From Ferroacidibacillus organovorans (GTDB lineage: Bacteria; Bacillota; Bacilli; Alicyclobacillales; SLC66): DNA of 41,736 nt. A program made the position numbers. Positions 1-30,000 of the stretch are shown in pieces (positions within the stretch are counted from its first letter, which is position 1; the number at the start of each line of letters is the position of its first letter). The stretch spans positions 1 through 41,736 of the forward strand of contig NZ_LSUQ01000022.1 in assembly GCF_001642725.1 (NCBI RefSeq), read 5' to 3'.

Positions 1-3000
1 GGCGTATCTGGACGCGGGATGCCGCAAACTCTATCTCTCTATGTTTTTCCTCTTTGCGGCAGGACACGTCAAACACGACATTCCATCTTCACTCCATCCG
101 CTGGTTACGCGCTACGGTGACGCTTCATTCTACATCGGGCCACCTGCGGGAAACGCCGAAGGAATTCTACAGGCGGCGATTTCACGCGTGCAGGACGCAG
201 TGCGTGAACATCCTGCACACAGTGACGCGACGGTTCTTTTGGTGGTGCGCGGAAGCAGCGATCAGGCCGCATGGGCAGACGTATTGCAGGTTGCGCGCGC
301 GCTGTCAGACCGACTTTCGCGTCCTGTGCTCCCGTGCGCGGTGGTCGGAGTGGGTCTCAGATTCAAGGATGCATTGTGCTTCGCTCGCAAAGCGATCATC
401 GTTCTCCCCTATCTCCTTTTCACAGGCAATGTCTTGCGCGAGATTCACGAGCTGTGTATTGCCGTACAGCGGGAGGGACGCATGCTCACGTGTACCAGTC
501 CTTTAGGTGGGCATCCGTTTGTTGAAGATTATTTCTATCAGCAGGCTACTTATCACGCAAATTTTGTGAAATACGCGATAGAATAGATGAATCAAAACGA
601 GTTTCGAAGGAGTGGGCCAATGTTTGAGATTGCAAGCGACAAGCTTGTCTATGCACTGAGCCAGAATCATGCGCCTGTTGCGCGCGTCACAAACGGGGAG
701 ACGGTCGTCTTTCACACGTGTGACTGTTTTCAAAACCAGATCACGCACGAAGAGCAAGAATTTGGAACGCTCGACTGGGAGCGCATCAACCCGGCGACAG
801 GTCCGCTGTTCATTGAAGGCGCTGATCCGGGTGACACGCTGGCTGTCGAGATCCTATCCATTGACGTAGCCGAGCAAGGTGTGATGACCACAGGTCCAAA
901 CCTCGGCGTGCTCGGAGACGAACTCGCTGAGAACGTGATTCGCATGGTGCCCATTCGCGACGGTGTGGCGCATTTTTCATCTTCGCTGCGCATCCCGCTC
1001 TCTCCAATGATTGGGGTCATCGGCACCGCGCCTGCCGGCGCGGACGTCTCGTGTGGAACGCCCGGCGACCACGGTGGAAATATGGACTGCACAAAGATTC
1101 GCGCTGGCGCAACGCTTTTGCTGCCGGTAAACGTGCCGGGAGCACTGCTCGCGATGGGTGATCTTCACGCGGCGATGGCTGATGGAGAGGTGGCCGTCTG
1201 CGGCATTGAGATCGCGGGGAAGGTAACCGTTCGGCTGCATGTGATCAAGGGCAAGACGTGGAAACTGCCGATGCTGATTGATGCGGAGCATGTGATCGCG
1301 ATTGCGTCAGAGGAGCGCCTCGATGAGGCGGCGGAACGCGCGACGAAAAACATGGTGGATTTTCTCGAAGGCTCCTGTGGAATGGAACGCGCGGAAGCGG
1401 TGCTGTTGCTGAGCGCTGCGGGGAGTTTGCGGATCTGTCAAGTGGTCGACCCGAAAAAGACGGCGCGTATGGAATTGCCGCGCGTGTATGCAGAGCAACT
1501 CGGGTTTTCGTTTGCGAACGCGTAGGTCATAGATCAGCATGTGCTTTTCATAGGGTAAAAGGGTAACGGTTGGTTTTCGCCGTTACTCTTTTTTCATATG
1601 AGGGGGAAGTGTGATGGTAAACGAGAATCGCTTGACGCAAAAGGAGGATGAGGTGCGGAGTGAGGAAGCCTGCGCGAGGTTTCTGCGAGCGGAACAGTTT
1701 CGGGCGCGCTTTCGTGTGGAAGAGCAAAGCGGCGAGGCATCTCTTCAAGCGTTGCTTGAGTTACGCTTACAGCGAATCGTCGAAACGTGGCCTGCTGAGG
1801 AGGATTTGCGCGTGTAGTTAATGGTTGCAAAACGTTGGGGATGTGAACACGGCGGGAGGGAGACGCGGATGCGCTGTGCGATCTATGCGCGGGTTTCGAC
1901 CGATCGACAAGGCGAGTCTGTTGACCATCAGGTTTCGCTCCTGCGCGAGTTTGCCAAACGTCGGGGGCAGGACTGGGAGGTTTTGGAGCATCTCGTTTTT
2001 GAGGATGAGGGGGTTTCGGCGACAAAGGTTTCCATTTGGACGAGACCTGCAATGAAGCGACTGATGGAGGCGGCGGAGCGGTCGGAAGTGGATGTTGTCT
2101 TGTTTAAGGGCATCTCACGTCTGGCGCGCAATACGCAAGAGGCGCTCGACGTCCTTGACCGTTTGCGCGCGCGCGGCTTGCGCGTGCTCTCTTACGAGGA
2201 GAGCTACGATTCGGCGAAGGAGAATTCGAACTTCATGTTCACGATGCACGCGGCCATCGCTGAGTATGAGGCAGAGAAGATCGGTGTGCGCGTGCGGCTT
2301 GGCAATAAAGAGAAGGCGAAATCAGGTCGCTGGGTGGGAGGGACACCTCCTGACGGCTACTACGTTGGGCGGGATGGTCATCTGGTGCCTGATGATGCGC
2401 GCGCGGGACTCATCCGTTCGATCTTTGAGCGCTATGCGTTGGATGGGTCATCGTGCGCCGCAATCGCTCGGGAACTGAATGCGCGCGGCGAGACAACGTC
2501 GACCGGGAATGGCTTCTCACAGACAGCGGTTGCGAGAATTCTTGACAACGAGGTGTACGCTGGACACTTGGTTTACAATCGGCGAACGGATCGCACCGTT
2601 CGCGATTACGACAGTGAGGTGCCCGGCAAGAAGAAAGAGCGGCGAATGCCGAATGTGCGGACAGAGTGGGTAGTGGTACACTGCGCTCATCCACCGTTGG
2701 TAACGCCGGATCTTGTGCAAATGGCACAAATGCGCCGCGGCCGTGTGCGCAGCCAAGCGCCGCGCACAACGCATTTGCTGACAGGAGTCCTCTCTTGCGG
2801 GCGCTGCCGCGCACCCTTGATCGCGCAGGTCAAACGCACGGCAAAGCGGGTCTATCGCTATTATGTCTGCCGCACGTACCACCAAGCGGGGAGGCAGGCG
2901 TGCGCGCAAGGAAGTGTCCCTGCGGATGATCTTGAGTCCTATGTGCTGACGCGCTTGTCTGAGCGCTTGCGCGAGGTGAGCATCAACGTGCTTGCACCCG

Positions 3001-27000: not shown

Positions 27001-30000
27001 TGTGCGGCAAACGCTTGAGGATGCATCAACGATTGGCGCCATTCTTCTTGCAGCCGATACGGCTGAATTCGCACAGTCACTAAAGCGGTGTGAACGGTCT
27101 GAGAAGATGGACCCCGAAGAAGAAATGGAAGAAGTGCAGCGTCTCCGATTTAAAGAGTATCAGAGACTGTGCCGTCTCCTCTATCCAAGCGCGTAGATTC
27201 GCTTTTGATCAACTCGGACGGAAGGATCTTGAGATGCGCCTCATCGGGTTGTTCATAGCCATCCTTGAATTGCTGAAGGAGGAGGTTTGCGACCCACGCT
27301 CCCATCTCAGGCACCGGCTGTCGAACGCACGTGAGCGAAGGGGAGATCAGTTTGATCCAATCGGGCTCATCGAATGTGGCCAATCCCAGTTTCTCTGGAG
27401 ACGGCCAATCGATTTGCTGTACGTGAGGATAGATTTCATGGAAAATCAACGCATTGGCTGTATAGAGTGCGATCGGTCTTTTCGAAATGTTTTCCTTTAT
27501 ACGCTCAACGACCGATTGCATGGAGACGTCATCCCCGCGTTTCACGATCTCCACGTGAGGAGTGCGATGATAGCGAGATGAACTGTCGAGATAACCCTGC
27601 AGGCGCTCGCTGCGCGTCGAAATGGCATTTGGGGTTTCTGTCACATAAAATACGTTCTGATATCCTTCTGCGTATAAATGGTTCGTCATTTTCATGGATG
27701 CCTCATAATTGTCCGTCAGTACATTTGTGGCGTGCGGGAGCTTGAATTTGCGATCAACGAGAATGACAGGCACTGATTTTGAGATCGTCTCCAGTTCTGT
27801 GAGATTGTCCCCGTTGGTTTGAATCACAATCGCATCGATTTGTTGACCGAGCAGCGTTTTTAGTACATGTGCTTCACGTTTTGGATCTCCCTCTGTTTCA
27901 CAGACGATGACGTTATACCCCTCAGGGGTAAGCGCATTGGAGAGGGAGCGAATGAGGGACACACAAAAAGGATAGCTCAACTTTACGACGATCACTGCAA
28001 TCATTCGACTGCGATTTCCCTTTAATCCTTGTGCGAGTGCATTCGGGTGATAATCCAGTTCTTCAATCACTTGCTCAATTCGCTTTTTTGTCTCTTGGCT
28101 CATCGCCTCATAGCGCGCGTTTAGAAAACGGGAAATGGTCGTGACAGATACGTTTGCTTCGCGGGCAACGTCCTGAATCGTGATTCGTTTCGCTGTCATT
28201 TTGTACGCTCCCCAAAATCCATTCGATGTATGTTCATCAAAGTATGTTCATCAAATATGACGAAGATAGACGGTAACATGGCGCTCCCGCGCCACCGTCT
28301 ACGGGAAAAATAAATCGCTGCGCCGTTATTTCGAGATAGACGTGCCTATTCTCGTGTTGCGCTATCTGATTTTACCACGAAGTGAATTTGAATCAGAAGA
28401 AAATCGGATCGATCGCAAAAAAGCATCTTTACGAAACGAAGGCTGGGCGACGTATTGGCACTTAAGGATCATGAGGGAACTCGAACTGACAGACGGTGAG
28501 TCACTCGATTTTGCGCGTACACACTCGGGAGTAGTTCTTCCCTCAAAAACATCGGTGAATCCTTACTTGATTGGACTGAAGATTTGGGAAGACATCGAGA
28601 AGCGCTATGATCATCCGACAGAGGAGATGAAAAAACGATTCGGCGCTCGCGCTGGTCAAGGACGCGAAAAAATGTTTGAAGTTAGGGAGATGGAATCAGA
28701 CACCTCCTTTATTCGAAACTATCTGACGGAGGAACTGGTCAGGGAACTCGATCTCTATCTCTATCAAAAGGTCGGAAATGAGTGGCGAATTGTTGAGACA
28801 GACTGGGAAAAGGTTCGCGACAAGATTTGGAAATCGAGGACAAACGGCGGATATCCGCTTCTTCATGTGGTAGACGGTGACTATCAACTCACGGGAGAAC
28901 TGTATTTGGTACACGCGTACGAAGGGAATGAGTTGGACGTGAAGTACACCGAAAAAACGCTGCCATCCGTCTATAAGCTGTGGGGGCGAACGGTTCACGT
29001 AGAGAGCGTCCTGGAAGGAAGAGCGGTCGTCTTTTCGTATGACGGACGAAAAACGACAAGAAAGTTTCTCTGAAGTGGCCCTGAATTTGACCTGACCACC
29101 TCAAAAAAGAGTGAGCGGGAATTCGTCGATTGCATTTTGCAAAACGGTTTGGCGCCTTGTCGATAAGGCGCCTTTTTTATGGATTCAAGCTGATCTTTAC
29201 AAAGTCTTCAAGAGACCGCTGTAAAGGATTAACACAGCCGCTCTATGATGATGTTAAATCATGGGTGTTTTGTGGAGGAAGCTTTCGATGAATCGAATTC
29301 TATTTGCAGACCGAGATGAAAGATTCTACACTAAATTGAATTTTGCGCTTCATGAGGCAGGGTTTTCAACCGAATTTTCAAGCGACGGCGAAGACGCATT
29401 CGGGCGTATGATGGTTGATCGGACGCGCTTTGACGTGCTCGTGATCGATAGCAATTTGCCGAGCATGAACGGCATCGAACTTTTAAAACGCGTGCGTACG
29501 GCGCGTCTTCACGTGCCGATTTTGATGTTAAACGAGATGGATGACGCAATGGAACGCATTCTTTCGCTCGAACTCGGTGCAGATGATTGTGTGACGAAAC
29601 CTGTGCATGTCCGCGAGTTGGTATTGCGGATACAAGCTTTGAGCCAGTGTCGCAATCGCGTGAATCCGCCTTTTGCGGTGCAGAGTGGTGAATTGCGACT
29701 GGGTAATATGAGACTGCGCGTCGAAGAGCGGGAATGTTTCATCGATCGCTACGAGATAGGTCTCACACCTGTGCAAGTCCAAGTGCTGAAAGCGCTTTTT
29801 CAAAAACCGGGATCTGTGGTGTTGCGCGAAGCGTTGATGCACGCAGCGTGGGGGAAAATTGTGCATCACCACTTGCTGGCGATGCAGATCTCTTTGCTTC
29901 GGCAAAAGTTTGACACGGTGACTACGCGGTCGCACGAGATTGAAACGGTGCATCATCGCGGGTACCGTCTCGCCAAAATTACCCCTTCAGATGAAAAAAG

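Follow-up and report, generated by a model that had tools for sequence, protein, structure and literature searches.

Serine Recombinase Elements in the prkA-yhbH-spoVR Sporulation Operon of Ferroacidibacillus organovorans Are Probably Skin-Like

Six DNA elements, all equipped with a large serine recombinase (LSR) of their own, break up the sporulation genes prkA, yhbH and spoVR of F. organovorans at five sites, and these elements are likely excised in the mother cell to rebuild the genes. The genome-wide survey's note had read them as skin-like elements, and anatomy, in-frame joins, own recombinases, cargo and intact gene pieces support this in part. Its count of five elements was too low: one element (3.8 kb) sits inside another, at the left end of the prkA insertion, as its remark on two recombinases there had suspected. 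Further evidence for the skin-like reading comes from the LSR tree, the attP dyads, a predicted excision factor and related recombinases beside split sigK and putative spoVFB genes.

Split Anatomy of the Operon

The window, i.e., the whole stretch of 41,736 nt analyzed, is contig C22 (NZ_LSUQ01000022.1). prkA, yhbH and spoVR were found in two, three and three pieces, collinear and on one strand, on contigs C43, C91 and C22. tblastn with the uninterrupted proteins of the relative G026 placed PrkA residues 14-302 at C43:3939-4805 and 293-642 at C91:1531-2580; YhbH residues 3-~220 at C91:2676-~3330, 218-~337 at C22:3376-~3735 and 334-379 at C22:7664-7801; and SpoVR residues 53-~131 at C22:7762-~7990, 124-340 at 14968-15624 and 330-546 at 28420-29070, thereby reproducing the survey's table. 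Pfam searches of the window returned a DUF444/YhbH piece (3379-3798, profile 257-380), two SpoVR pieces (14995-15819, profile 63-270; 28342-29073, profile 260-405 plus SpoVR_C) and four LSRs at 1821-3392 (+), 3776-5341 (-), 8019-9533 (-) and 16789-18309 (+). The gene pieces in the window are as follows:

3378..3733, + strand: yhbH middle piece, G026 YhbH residues ~218-337 (tblastn), TIGR02877 215-332, dN/dS 0.030
7674..7816, + strand: yhbH 3' piece, TIGR02877 330-371, stop TGA at 7814-7816
7813..7991, + strand: spoVR 5' piece, PF04293 positions 3-62, dN/dS 0.028, ends in core TTTGGTAA (7984-7991)
14982..15620, + strand: spoVR middle piece (Pfam, tblastn), dN/dS 0.034, ends in core AACGAAGGCTGGGC (15607-15620)
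28449..29073, + strand: spoVR 3' piece with stop codon (Pfam, tblastn), dN/dS 0.020

The yhbH stop codon overlaps the spoVR start codon GTG at 7813. No second copy of prkA, yhbH or spoVR was matched in the 96.8%-complete assembly (tblastn, E<=1e-3), and both Spo0A and SpoIVA were found in the genome. According to a collinear sister contig, C43, C91 and C22 are neighbours, separated by about 58 and 27 bp; therefore, the sizes of the prkA and first yhbH elements, previously considered incomplete, are now known. Contigs from runs of two further studies span integrated junctions (X5: 3674-11527; X6: 3300-8973), and thus the arrangement is not an assembly artefact.

Elements and Cargo

The elements E1a and E1b (prkA), E2 and E3 (yhbH sites 1 and 2) and E4 and E5 (spoVR sites 1 and 2) measure about 3.8, 14.9, 7.3, 3.9, 7.0 and 12.8 kb, and together place roughly 50 kb of insert within a 4.6-kb operon. 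A perfect 20-bp repeat borders the nested E1a. This element is missing from the sister species G001, which shares E1b, E2, E3 and E5 at identical sites; the four shared insertions noted earlier were thus found again. E4 is a discrete insertion, since spoVR of G001 is uninterrupted at site 1. E2 is collinear with the sister contig. The features of the elements in the window are as follows:

1..3377, +: right-hand 3.4 kb of E2; left part at C91:3323-7180, about 27 bp away
41-586, +: CbiX (Pfam)
587-1525, +: acetamidase/formamidase-family gene (Pfam)
1611-1817, +: 68-aa ORF
1821..3392, +: E2 LSR, 523 aa, Resolvase, Recombinase and Zn_ribbon_recom domains, YxRxS motif, yhbH-1 clade, dN/dS 0.14
3734..7673, no strand: E3 (3.9 kb), core GGTCAATCAAT at both ends, also in the sister species
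3776..5341, -: E3 LSR, 521 aa (Pfam), yhbH-2 clade, dN/dS 0.16
5430..7370, +: 646-aa membrane transporter, AA_permease_2 (Pfam), dN/dS 0.022
7992..14981, no strand: E4 (7.0 kb), cores, empty site in G001
8019..9533, -: E4 LSR, 504 aa (Pfam), spoVR-1 clade
9656..9802, +: 48-aa ORF, weak candidate excision factor, just upstream of the E4 LSR in divergent orientation
10089..14850, -: E4 cargo overall (Pfam, ORF list)
10089-11048, -: ornithine cyclodeaminase family (Pfam)
11245-12276, -: phosphotransferase (APH-like) gene, in pieces (Pfam)
12293-12745, -: GNAT (Pfam)
12787-13725, -: Indigoidine_A/pseudouridine-glycosidase family (Pfam)
13741-14850, -: PfkB kinase with HTH (Pfam)
15621..28448, no strand: E5 (12.8 kb), cores AACGAAGGCTGGGC, attP dyad
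15756-16274, -: DinB-family gene (Pfam)
16319..16549, -: 76-aa ORF, candidate recombination directionality factor, divergent from the E5 LSR
16789..18309, +: E5 LSR, 506 aa (Pfam), spoVR-2 clade, dN/dS 0.10
18339-19265: terpene synthase (Pfam)
19102-20763: squalene-hopene-cyclase-like class II cyclase (Pfam)
20750-23068: GGDEF-HD protein (Pfam)
23072-24184: polyprenyl synthase (Pfam)
24338-25627: MFS (Pfam)
25685-27196: FGGY kinase (Pfam)
27150-28199, -: LacI regulator (Pfam)

The cargo is metabolic and not phage-like, as had been claimed: besides the Pfam content, a structural PHROG match was obtained for 1 of 36 element ORFs scanned, and this through its glycosidase domain. The E3 transporter also matched K_trans, under the cut-off of that Pfam family, and has a 61% identical paralog on C2. 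The GC content of the E4 region is lower, with 0.44-0.48 over 9001-13000. Three tested E5 cargo genes showed dN/dS of 0.04-0.10.

Junctions and attP Symmetry

The three short shared cores reported earlier in C22 were recovered. AACGAAGGCTGGGC lies at the two ends of E5 (15607 and 28435), GGTCAATCAAT flanks E3 (3723-3733 and 7663-7673), and TTTGGTAA, at 7984 and 14974 for E4, lies inside a 15-nt imperfect match (7977-7991/14967-14981). The prkA ends share an imperfect 26-nt match (C43:4776-4801 vs. C91:1531-1556), and those of yhbH site 1 have just about 4 nt (GATC) in common. The E2 LSR ORF extends 15 nt over the junction into yhbH, and 40 nt separate the left junction of E3 from the 3' end of its LSR gene.

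In silico joining at the cores gave single open frames for PrkA (632 aa), YhbH (402 aa) and SpoVR (480 aa), with 0 gap columns against orthologs at the five junctions. Joined PrkA was 80.2% identical to its 642-aa ortholog with 0 internal gaps, and joined SpoVR 72% identical to an intact 478-aa ortholog. Conserved peptide motifs stand at the junctions (SADE/M, DTSGS/MG, VNQ/Y, WSFGK and NEGWA).

The attP sites of E2, E4 and E5 are dyad-symmetric: the reconstructed sites scored 12, 16 and 13, values reached by at most 0.2% of a background of 3000 random genomic 64-mers (0.1% for E4 and 0.17% for E5). For E3, symmetry was only modest, with a score of 8 that 6.5% of the background also reached, and E1a and E1b showed none by the dyad measure used. 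The element-side arms of E5/spoVR-2 are kept in six genomes.

Selection on Gene Pieces and Lineages of the Recombinases

In comparison with G001, with which four insertions are shared, all eight gene pieces were free of stop codons and showed dN/dS of 0.015-0.034 at dS of 0.5-1.4 (Nei-Gojobori estimates, dS near 1 being close to saturation), the flanking genes having 0.04-0.07. This strong purifying selection on all eight pieces rules out dead pseudogenes, the objection raised in the survey's note. For the three recombinases tested (E2, E3 and E5), dN/dS was 0.10-0.16.

All six LSRs are intact, with the YxRxS catalytic and CxxC...C zinc motifs kept. The seven co-resident recombinases, including that of sigK, which is also split in this genome and has its own LSR on a separate contig, share 21-40% pairwise identity, slightly revising an earlier range of 22-42%. 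In a tree of 42 LSRs from a quick IQ-TREE search, one clade was obtained per target site across several genera (rows/SH-aLRT: yhbH-1 4/99, yhbH-2 12/98, spoVR-1 5/99, spoVR-2 6/100, prkA-a plus nested E1a 5/100), and identical split sites recur with the cognate clades in several genera. Among 30 distant loci of other Bacillota with LSRs 35-43% identical, remoter relatives of the yhbH-2 recombinases, 14 directly adjoin sigK-like sigma-70 fragments, 5 adjoin cotJ genes and 4 a truncated flavoprotein gene, which we read as spoVFB.

Candidate Excision Factors

A homolog of the 76-aa ORF of E5 was found at the same position, divergent from the LSR, in six of six spoVR-2 elements; the ORF belongs to no known family of Pfam, NCBIfam or PHROG. 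The complex of E5 LSR and 76-aa ORF, modelled on our own 6-row alignments, scored 0.62 (best of three controls: 0.02), passing a mark that 116 of 157 solved complexes and 2 of 215 mismatched pairs attained. Agreement between runs covered at least 73% of contacts, with a pLDDT of at least 74 for the 76-aa partner. Contacts were predicted at LSR residues 346-374 and 432-486, on both sides of the base of a helical hairpin that spans residues 360-443 of the LSR structure model. For verified directionality factors, binding is predicted at the junction of DBD2 and coiled coil (PMC12286644), and the 76-aa ORF is predicted to bind the E5 recombinase at the place used by excision factors. Since a solved SPbeta LSR-factor complex exists, this result may partly reflect likeness to that structure. 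Upstream of the ORF, no convincing sporulation promoter was recognized by eye.

Candidates for E1a, E1b, E2, E3 and E4 were weak or missing. The 48-aa ORF of E4 has, by eye, similar sequences at the same position in two other spoVR-1 elements and no Pfam, NCBIfam or PHROG family.

Proposed Excision and Alternative Explanations

As the pieces are kept intact by selection, the sequences suggest that the inserts are most likely cut out again when a spore is made. We infer that excision takes place, in which cell type and when it would do so, that the 76-aa ORF serves as excision factor, and in what order events would run at prkA. A core sporulation table (PMC3416734) assigns prkA, yhbH and spoVR to the mother-cell sigma-E regulon, a control carried over from B. 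subtilis. Every LSR is specific for a single short and conserved coding segment. At sporulation it would act in the mother cell, the compartment in which B. subtilis expresses these three genes, and recombine attL with attR together with a small directionality factor encoded by the element. The element would be released as a circle and the interrupted gene rejoined in frame. Nested E1a would leave first, or with E1b, so that the left site of E1b is rebuilt. The forespore would retain all elements, which, with their metabolic cargo, would therefore be inherited vertically.

It is rather unlikely that precise excision instead occurs in vegetative cells, stochastically or under stress, whether as a reversible switch or through ordinary mobility, and that sporulating cells are those that lost all inserts. 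The yin element of yabG, as described in the passages available, is excised at all culture time points (PMC10747680), interruption elements are likewise described in genes without a heterocyst role (PMC4874684), and the two species are 98% identical over 574 bp (16047-16620) vs. 80-85% in the surroundings, which suggests recent exchange. However, six independent losses would have to coincide in one germ-line cell, and lost elements would have to re-integrate, yet four persist in both species at unchanged sites over dS of about 1; the contigs of the isolate and of two metagenome studies show the integrated form. That the genes are permanently broken, or that their fragments act as separate polypeptides between ordinary fixed insertions whose recombinases serve integration or transfer only, is highly improbable. 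No excised form was seen, neither a rejoined gene nor a circle junction, and two downstream pieces start near an in-frame ATG (3379 and 14995); but the dN/dS of all eight pieces excludes decay, the breaks fall inside the AAA domain of PrkA (position ~278/358 of the Pfam profile), directly after the YhbH DTSGS motif and within the SpoVR domain, the frames read on past the piece ends for a few unrelated codons until a stop is met, and several genera share the split sites together with cognate recombinase clades.

Repeats of 4-20 nt are too short for efficient RecA-dependent deletion, and the cores, although direct repeats, lie in this range. This speaks against the distinctly unlikely case that most LSRs are relics and that one or a few, acting across sites, or homologous recombination between the short repeats account for all joins. 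E1a and E1b recombinases do form one clade with a common target sequence; however, the tested enzymes are under purifying selection, the co-resident ones are merely 21-40% identical, and every clade follows its own site.

Comparison with Known Systems

The mother-cell excision favoured here has a close model in skin of B. subtilis sigK (SpoIVCA; also in C. difficile), where, in the texts consulted, excision rebuilds the gene and the spore genome keeps the element (PMC6957869, PMC4191935). Alike are an element in a mother-cell sporulation gene, an LSR close to one end and short shared cores; this genome's own split sigK and the yhbH-2-recombinase relatives beside sigK-like fragments extend the likeness. 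In contrast to skin, one element in one gene, six elements lie in other target genes of one operon, with metabolic cargo and no phage structural module, and excision is here a proposal from sequence. Several elements within one sporulation operon is what stands out.

The novelty claimed earlier held in part. Among the papers that the literature search reached, none was found to name prkA or yhbH as intervening-element targets. spoVR is already published as a target (vrin of Geobacillus thermoglucosidasius C56-YS93), as is spoVFB (vfbin of Bacillus weihenstephanensis KBAB4), both as reported in secondary accounts citing Abe et al. 2013 (PMC4191935, PMC6957869); unlike vrin, spoVR is hit here at two sites simultaneously by two separate recombinase clades. 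Non-prophage elements are likewise known from gin in gerE of Bacillus cereus ATCC 10987, described in the part consulted as a serine recombinase with a small partner protein (PMC5595907), and relatives of this genome carry comparable 2.8-3.3-kb elements of one LSR and one cargo gene; the elements here differ in target gene and are larger, with whole metabolic gene sets. In SPbeta, an active phage in spsM, the LSR SprA is turned to excision by SprB, bound at the DBD2/coiled-coil junction in the account cited (PMC12286644). Binding to this region of the LSR is also predicted for the 76-aa ORF of E5; as the ORF has no known family, its likeness to SprB consists of position and predicted interface only.

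Several developmental excisions in one gene cluster, by contrast, are not new, being published for heterocyst nif genes. The nif/hup interruption elements (XisA/XisC/XisF) divide nifBHDK of Calothrix sp. NIES-4101 into 13 parts, as given in the sections consulted (PMC11249958, PMC4874684). They concern nitrogen fixation in cyanobacteria, not sporulation in Bacillota, and include inversions; the best LSR here scored 181.5 bits against the XisF equivalog, far below the cut-off of 375. On the published descriptions, both systems place many recombinase-bearing inserts in one cluster needed only in a terminally differentiated cell, with recombinase genes near the terminal repeats and recombinase lineages that follow the interrupted gene.

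Split Genes and Reading Frames Rejoined in Silico

The window is contig C22 of an assembly of 98 contigs (96.8% complete), which encodes Spo0A and SpoIVA. Pfam matched 3379-3798 to YhbH (DUF444) and two stretches, 14995-15819 and 28342-29073, to SpoVR, each as a fragment. A tblastn analysis with the intact PrkA, YhbH and SpoVR of a relative (G026) reproduced the table of split prkA, yhbH and spoVR drawn up in the genome-wide survey's note. The pieces lie on the same strand throughout and are collinear from contig C43 via C91 to C22:

C43:3939-4805, prkA, first piece
C91:1531-2580, prkA, second piece
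C91:2676-~3330, yhbH, first piece
C22:3376-~3735, yhbH, second piece
C22:7664-7801, yhbH, third piece
C22:~7813-7990, spoVR, first piece
C22:14968-15624, spoVR, second piece
C22:28420-29070, spoVR, third piece

No second copy of prkA, yhbH or spoVR was matched in the assembly at E ≤ 1e-3. The yhbH stop codon TGA (7814-7816) overlaps the spoVR start codon GTG (7813), which is preceded by a GGAGG-like site, and prkA and yhbH are spaced by 30 nt on C91. Thus, a prkA-yhbH-spoVR operon can fairly be assumed.

Put in order, the pieces cover the domains of all three proteins in full. PrkA is covered by AAA_PrkA positions 2-278 and 269-356 and positions 1-255 of the PrkA C-terminal domain, and SpoVR by profile positions 3-62, 53-270 and 260-405. 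The YhbH pieces span positions 3-215, 215-332 and 330-371 of TIGR02877 ('sporulation protein YhbH'), the last being the match of the short 3' piece, and positions 7-182, 223-259 and 256-381 of DUF444. A scripted join at the shared cores of the inserts yielded open frames of 632 aa for PrkA (80.2% identity to the 642-aa ortholog, 0 internal gaps), 402 aa for YhbH and 480 aa for SpoVR (72% identity to the intact 478-aa ortholog), with no gap columns at any junction. The breaks fall in conserved motifs: SADE|M (AAA domain of PrkA), the position immediately following DTSGS (YhbH), VNQ|Y, WSFGK and NEGWA.

The survey's note had considered that the genes might be dead pseudogenes. Compared with the sister species G001, all eight pieces were free of stops and showed dN/dS values of 0.015-0.034 at dS 0.5-1.4 (Nei-Gojobori), figures that come from a single species pair and in which a dS near 1 approaches saturation. 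Two flanking genes gave 0.04 and 0.07 in the same comparison. The dead-gene reading was ruled out by these stop-free frames and ratios. Since four insertions are common to both genomes, their recombinases orthologous (dS 0.76-1.09) and their cargo syntenic, prkA, yhbH and spoVR have been strongly selected while interrupted.

Inserted Elements, Their Ends and Nesting

One G001 contig is collinear with C43, C91 and C22 and leaves gaps of only about 58 and 27 bp between them. On it, prkA is interrupted, as are yhbH at both sites and spoVR at site 2, and spoVR runs unbroken through site 1, where C22:7991 and C22:14967 map with a 15-nt overlap. As this overlap is exactly the shared core, the 7.0-kb element E4 represents a precise insertion missing from G001.

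The prkA insert of the present genome is composite. Element E1a (C43:4806-8590, 3785 bp) has a perfect direct repeat of 20 bp on either side and no counterpart in G001; its position coincides exactly with the left junction of E1b, the older element. The nesting suspected in the survey's note is thereby borne out; its count of five elements became six at five sites, while its description of recombinase-bearing inserts in all three genes stood. E1b contains a DDE transposase here and none in G001. Together, the six elements amount to about 50 kb and spread the 4.6-kb operon over about 54 kb.

Elements, shared cores and cargo annotated with Pfam
E1a, nested in prkA; 20 nt; GH18
E1b, prkA; imperfect ~26 nt; MFS, M3 oligopeptidase, MetE-like protein, MOSC, unknowns, an IS
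E2, yhbH site 1; ~4 nt; PAPS reductase, ATP sulfurylase, sulfite reductase, CbiX, an amidase
E3, yhbH site 2; 11 nt; transporter
E4, spoVR site 1; 8 nt in a 15-nt imperfect match; ornithine cyclodeaminase family, GNAT, Indigoidine_A family, PfkB kinase, fragmented phosphotransferase
E5, spoVR site 2; 14 nt; DinB, terpene synthase, class II cyclase-like, GGDEF-HD, polyprenyl synthase, MFS, FGGY kinase, LacI

Short cores are shared by the two ends of the elements, and excision in silico restores the open frames. The insertions lie inside the coding sequences of mother-cell sporulation genes, the sigma-E assignment being that of a B. subtilis-based table that lists prkA, yhbH and spoVR (PMC3416734, accessible part).

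When attP, the site expected on an excised circle, was reconstructed from the core and the element-side arms on its two sides, it was dyad-symmetric for E2 (score 12), E4 (16) and E5 (13); at most 0.2% of 3000 random genomic 64-mers reached these scores. The symmetry of E3 was modest (score 8, equalled by 6.5% of the background 64-mers), and that of E1a and E1b, as delimited here, did not exceed the background of 3000 genomic 64-mers. The spoVR-2 sites of six genomes have a common core and recognisably similar element-side arms. Two of these six form an almost perfect palindrome centred on TG, which from its sequence is the likely crossover dinucleotide.

The Recombinases of the Cluster

Each of the six elements carries its own large serine recombinase (LSR):

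C43:6919-8562, LSR of E1a
C43:11181-13193, LSR of E1b
C22:1821-3392, plus strand, LSR of E2
C22:3776-5341, minus strand, LSR of E3
C22:8019-9533, minus strand, LSR of E4
C22:16789-18309, plus strand, LSR of E5

The catalytic motif YxRxS and the zinc pattern CxxC...C occur in all six, and five contain all three Pfam domains (Resolvase, Recombinase, zinc ribbon). The E1a enzyme had no Zn_ribbon_recom match at E ≤ 1e-4, yet the CxxC...C pattern is present in the alignment. These six proteins are large serine recombinases by definition. In the AlphaFold model of the E5 enzyme (mean pLDDT 65.5), residues 360-443 form a predicted helical hairpin. None of the LSRs reached the NCBIfam equivalog cut-offs for CcrB, CcrC or XisF, the best scores being 220.7 vs 900 for CcrB and 181.5 vs 375 for XisF. 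With the LSR of the split sigK included, the seven co-resident enzymes share 21-40% pairwise identity; the survey's note had given a similarly low but slightly different range of 22-42%. Compared with G001, dN/dS was 0.14 for the E2, 0.16 for the E3 and 0.10 for the E5 recombinase. The E5 recombinase of G001 had appeared to be a pseudogene with two stops, which was rejected as both lie beyond the natural C-terminus.

In four elements, the LSR gene lies at or near an element end (attL, attR). The LSR of E3 is 40 nt and that of E4 28 nt from attL, that of E1a is 9 nt from the right repeat, and the E2 ORF crosses attR. This E2 ORF extends 15 nt beyond the junction at 3377/3378 into yhbH, as it does in G001; its last codons and stop would therefore change upon excision.

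The split sigK lies on contig C17 (locus L019), outside the window. Its insert has a cargo of about 6 kb (LacI regulator, solute-binding protein, two ABC permeases):

L019:2626-3000, 5' part of sigK with pro-sequence and region 2, ending near 3000
L019:7555-9159, minus strand, LSR
L019:9207-9665, 3' part of sigK (Sigma70_r4)

In total, the assembly contains about 19 LSR-like ORFs, some 11 of them outside the prkA cluster and sigK (contigs C15, C40, C41, C46, C56, C59, C68, C69, C72). Their contexts are unclear or resemble conjugative elements (TrwB-like protein, relaxase, SLT, tyrosine integrases). Four near-identical ORFs adjoin conjugation-type genes (TrwB-like protein, relaxase, SLT), C15 and C41 carry two sets of at least two adjacent LSR-like ORFs, and C68 a PIN/Phd pair. 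No split sporulation gene was seen beside these 11 or so ORFs when 70-aa frames in the fetched flanks were inspected.

Recurrence of the Split Sites in Relatives

Family and protein searches were carried out in 31 genomes, including the present one (G000), and gene pieces and LSRs were mapped in 20 stretches from 14 relatives and in stretches from G001 and G004. The splits fall at recurring positions, and an LSR adjoins the junction at each site and genome tabulated.

Split sites (amino acid numbering of the G026 proteins) and genomes
prkA site a; ~299; G000, G001, G006, G030
prkA site b; ~515-520; G002
yhbH site 1; ~218; G000, G001, G009, G010
yhbH site 2; ~336-342; 12 genomes
spoVR site 1; ~126-132; G000, G002, G010, G018, G022
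spoVR site 2; ~335-341; G000, G001, G002, G010, G012, G016

At least one checked split with a recombinase alongside was found in 15 of the 31 genomes, G000 included. G010 likewise has five split sites, with no recombinase at its prkA site within the fetched stretch, and G005, G015, G017 and G019 gave split-like matches. Of the order's 64 genomes examined, 10 have a prkA split at site a, with the halves on one contig or, in G000, on adjacent contigs; in three further genomes, the prkA halves lie at contig ends. Three ORFs upstream of the G004 spoVR had been taken for prkA and yhbH, which was wrong, the real yhbH and prkA lying further on, past a 9-kb element.

A tree of 42 LSRs (27 from relatives, 15 from G000; quick IQ-TREE search, with several outgroup rows on long branches) contained one clade per target site. 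These were yhbH-1 (4 rows, SH-aLRT 99), yhbH-2 (12 rows, 98), spoVR-1 (5 rows, 99), spoVR-2 (6 rows, 100) and prkA-a (5 rows, 100). This clustering by site was equalled in 0 of 200 label shuffles. The prkA-a clade includes the LSR of the nested E1a, which explains the landing of E1a in the hybrid left site of E1b.

At spoVR site 1 of G022, an insert of about 135 kb (C1, ~533300-668400; loci L031, L032) has an LSR of the site-1 clade at one end, with a 148-aa ORF adjoining. Possibly, this site is used here by a large prophage or conjugative element.

A scan with the yhbH-2 alignment, limited to one genome per species, was evaluated for the best 80 of 536 confirmed loci. The best 12 of these (42-49% identity) all adjoin yhbH pieces and belong to Alicyclobacillus contaminans, A. 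tolerans, Sulfoacidibacillus thermotolerans and Alicyclobacillaceae or Bacillota MAGs. Of the remaining 68, 30 loci were chosen so that each species or genus was represented about once, and the 700 nt that follow the recombinase gene were scanned. Fragments of sigma-70 region 2 or region 4 were found beside 14 of the 30. At four loci, all from Bacillus, the neighbour is a truncated flavoprotein (profile 1-112 of 162), read as spoVFB. Five adjoin cotJA/cotJB or a manganese-catalase (CotJC) fragment, their hosts being three Alicyclobacillus species, Thermoactinomyces daqus and Paenibacillus silviterrae. Another four adjoin Peptidase_S11 (a fragment in Paenibacillus taiwanensis), a YheC/D ATP-grasp protein (A. 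contaminans), Mur_ligase_M (a fragment in Shimazuella alba) and GH5; the 700 nt downstream of the other three held no match. The cotJ, Peptidase_S11, YheC/D, Mur_ligase_M and GH5 neighbours (loci L061-L121) are possible further interrupted genes. Taken together, the neighbours of the 30 and the 12 loci place the prkA, yhbH and spoVR clades within a broader LSR family that habitually resides inside sporulation genes.

Metabolic Cargo

The non-phage metabolic cargo proposed in the survey's note was borne out by Pfam and by a PHROGs scan of 36 element ORFs. In that scan, a structural family ('minor tail protein') was touched by the GH18 protein alone, over 142 residues, and no terminase, portal, capsid or holin family was found among the 36. 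The elements thus differ from prophages of the SPbeta or skin type, which are characterized by phage structural, packaging and lysis genes. Five cargo genes gave dN/dS values of 0.02-0.10 relative to G001.

The sulfate genes and CbiX of E2 occupy C91:3452-7029 and window positions 41-586. No second homolog of cysH-sat-sir or CbiX was found in the 96.8%-complete assembly (E ≤ 1e-10, at least 50% coverage), and E2 apparently holds the only sulfate-assimilation genes of the genome. Small elements of relatives (2.8-3.3 kb) consist of one LSR and one cargo gene, named from the translations as thioredoxin reductase, ATP sulfurylase or an NRAMP-like or MFS transporter. The ATP sulfurylase-like gene occurs in a 3.3-kb element of a relative at the same yhbH site as E2.

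Candidate Excision Factors

In all six spoVR-2 elements, a small ORF lies directly upstream of the LSR gene and divergent from it. These ORFs are homologous, with 24-95% identity to the copy in E5. The E5 product matched no family in Pfam, NCBIfam or PHROG. Such ORFs are candidates for the recombination directionality factor (RDF). For the other elements, the candidates are positional only. The candidate ORFs, with that of E5, are:

C22:16322-16549, minus strand, 76 aa, E5
C22:9656-9802, 48 aa, E4; similar ORFs in two other spoVR-1 elements
C22:1611-1817, 68 aa, E2; 79% identity in G001
C43:8596-8787, 63 aa, E1b

Complex prediction of the 76-aa protein with the E5 LSR gave a score of 0.62, whereas the best of three controls reached 0.02. 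Among solved complexes, 116 of 157 attain the mark for this score, and among mismatched pairs 2 of 215; these counts hold only roughly here because our own 6-row alignments were used. The runs agreed in at least 73% of contacts, with a partner pLDDT of at least 74. In the AlphaFold model, the predicted contacts (LSR residues 346-374 and 432-486) lie on both sides of the base of the 360-443 hairpin and avoid its tip. According to the accessible part of PMC12286644, verified directionality factors are predicted to bind the junction of DBD2 and the coiled coil. Since a solved LSR-factor complex exists for SPbeta, part of the score may reflect likeness to that structure. The complex predictor supports binding of the candidate factor to the E5 LSR. 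In a comparison by eye with the consensus sequences, no convincing sigma-E or sigma-K promoter was recognized in the 240 nt upstream of the 76-aa ORF.

Excision as the Proposed Function

Assembled Logan contigs of four public runs (two from the isolate's sample and two metagenomes of other studies) were compared with window positions 3300-23299. Contigs bridged the integrated arrangement over 3300-13025 (X1, record 1, isolate), 3674-11527 (X5) and 3300-8973 (X6), the last two runs being metagenomes from the two other studies. No rejoined joint at the att sites was reported over this range; as contigs cannot show rare forms, the search says nothing on excision. A loose end at 15620 in X5 was rejected as an excision joint since it continues as the intact spoVR of a different organism. 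Predicted 50-nt attB (rejoined gene) and attP strings, with up to 3 mismatches, had no match in the assembly other than trivial self-matches of the E1a repeat.

The split operon described in the survey's note was confirmed and extended. That the elements form a skin-like intervening set, excised to rebuild prkA, yhbH and spoVR, is in our judgement probable. By analogy with skin, SPbeta and gin, excision would occur at a defined time in the mother cell and would depend on a small ORF.

The accessible parts of PMC4191935 and PMC6957869 list sigK, spoVFB, spoVR (vrin), spsM, gerE and spoIVFB as interrupted genes and place almost all such elements in mother-cell genes; that of PMC10747680 adds yabG. 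Neither prkA nor yhbH is mentioned in the accessible parts of these three or of PMC5595907. No report of their interruption was found in the literature searched, to which most subscription journals do not belong. The two genes thus stood as new targets within that literature, whereas the novelty claimed in the survey's note for several developmental excisions within one operon did not hold in general. Heterocysts, outside Bacillota, are already known for multiple excisions in one gene cluster, with 101 interruption elements in 22 orthologs (PMC4874684) and a nifBHDK cluster in 13 parts restored by nine recombination events (PMC11249958), as stated in the accessible parts of both. New here, besides the two targets, are six elements (one nested) in one operon, the family-wide occurrence of the trait, the metabolic cargo and a candidate new directionality factor.

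A more far-reaching reading appears to us evenly balanced between right and wrong. It holds, as one joint claim, that one mother-cell operon of this bacterial family is shared as a landing pad by at least six orthogonal lineages of recombinase and att site, probably also of excision factor; that the elements are vertically inherited carriers of ordinary metabolism; that about seven programmed deletions (the six and sigK) would remove more than 55 kb per sporulating mother cell, a difference between germ line and soma on a scale so far described only for heterocysts; and that natural, co-resident and non-cross-reacting triples of integrase, att site and RDF would result.

If excision is confirmed, the operon would make multi-step programmed DNA elimination tractable in a spore-former. 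It would also allow testing whether sporulation's selection for the excision machinery keeps such elements, which persist here with cargo of a housekeeping kind, among it the sole cysH-sat-sir set found. Co-resident recombinase sets are parts wanted in genome engineering, and confirmed excision would provide one with 21-40% mutual identity, defined att sites and at least one candidate directionality factor.

Further Observations in the Window

Just after the E3 transporter gene, a short sequence (7375-7451) recurs on several other contigs of the isolate runs and of two metagenomes, where it gives rise to numerous loose ends and to pieces of 33-46 nt; it resembles a dispersed REP-like repeat. 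In E5, a 574-bp stretch (16047-16620) with the 5' half of DinB and the 76-aa ORF is 98% identical to G001, compared with 80-85% in its flanks, a pattern pointing to exchange or conversion between these lineages in the recent past.

In E4, the gene for an APH-like phosphotransferase (11245-12276) is spread over about three frames. In metagenome contigs of two studies, TG is inserted after 11210 and C after 9443; therefore, other strains may have different frames there. Downstream of spoVR, Pfam detected ordinary genes:

C22:29261-41736, response regulator, phosphate-type ABC transporter set, FTR1 iron permease, cytosine/purine permease, transaldolase, transketolase, DUF5317
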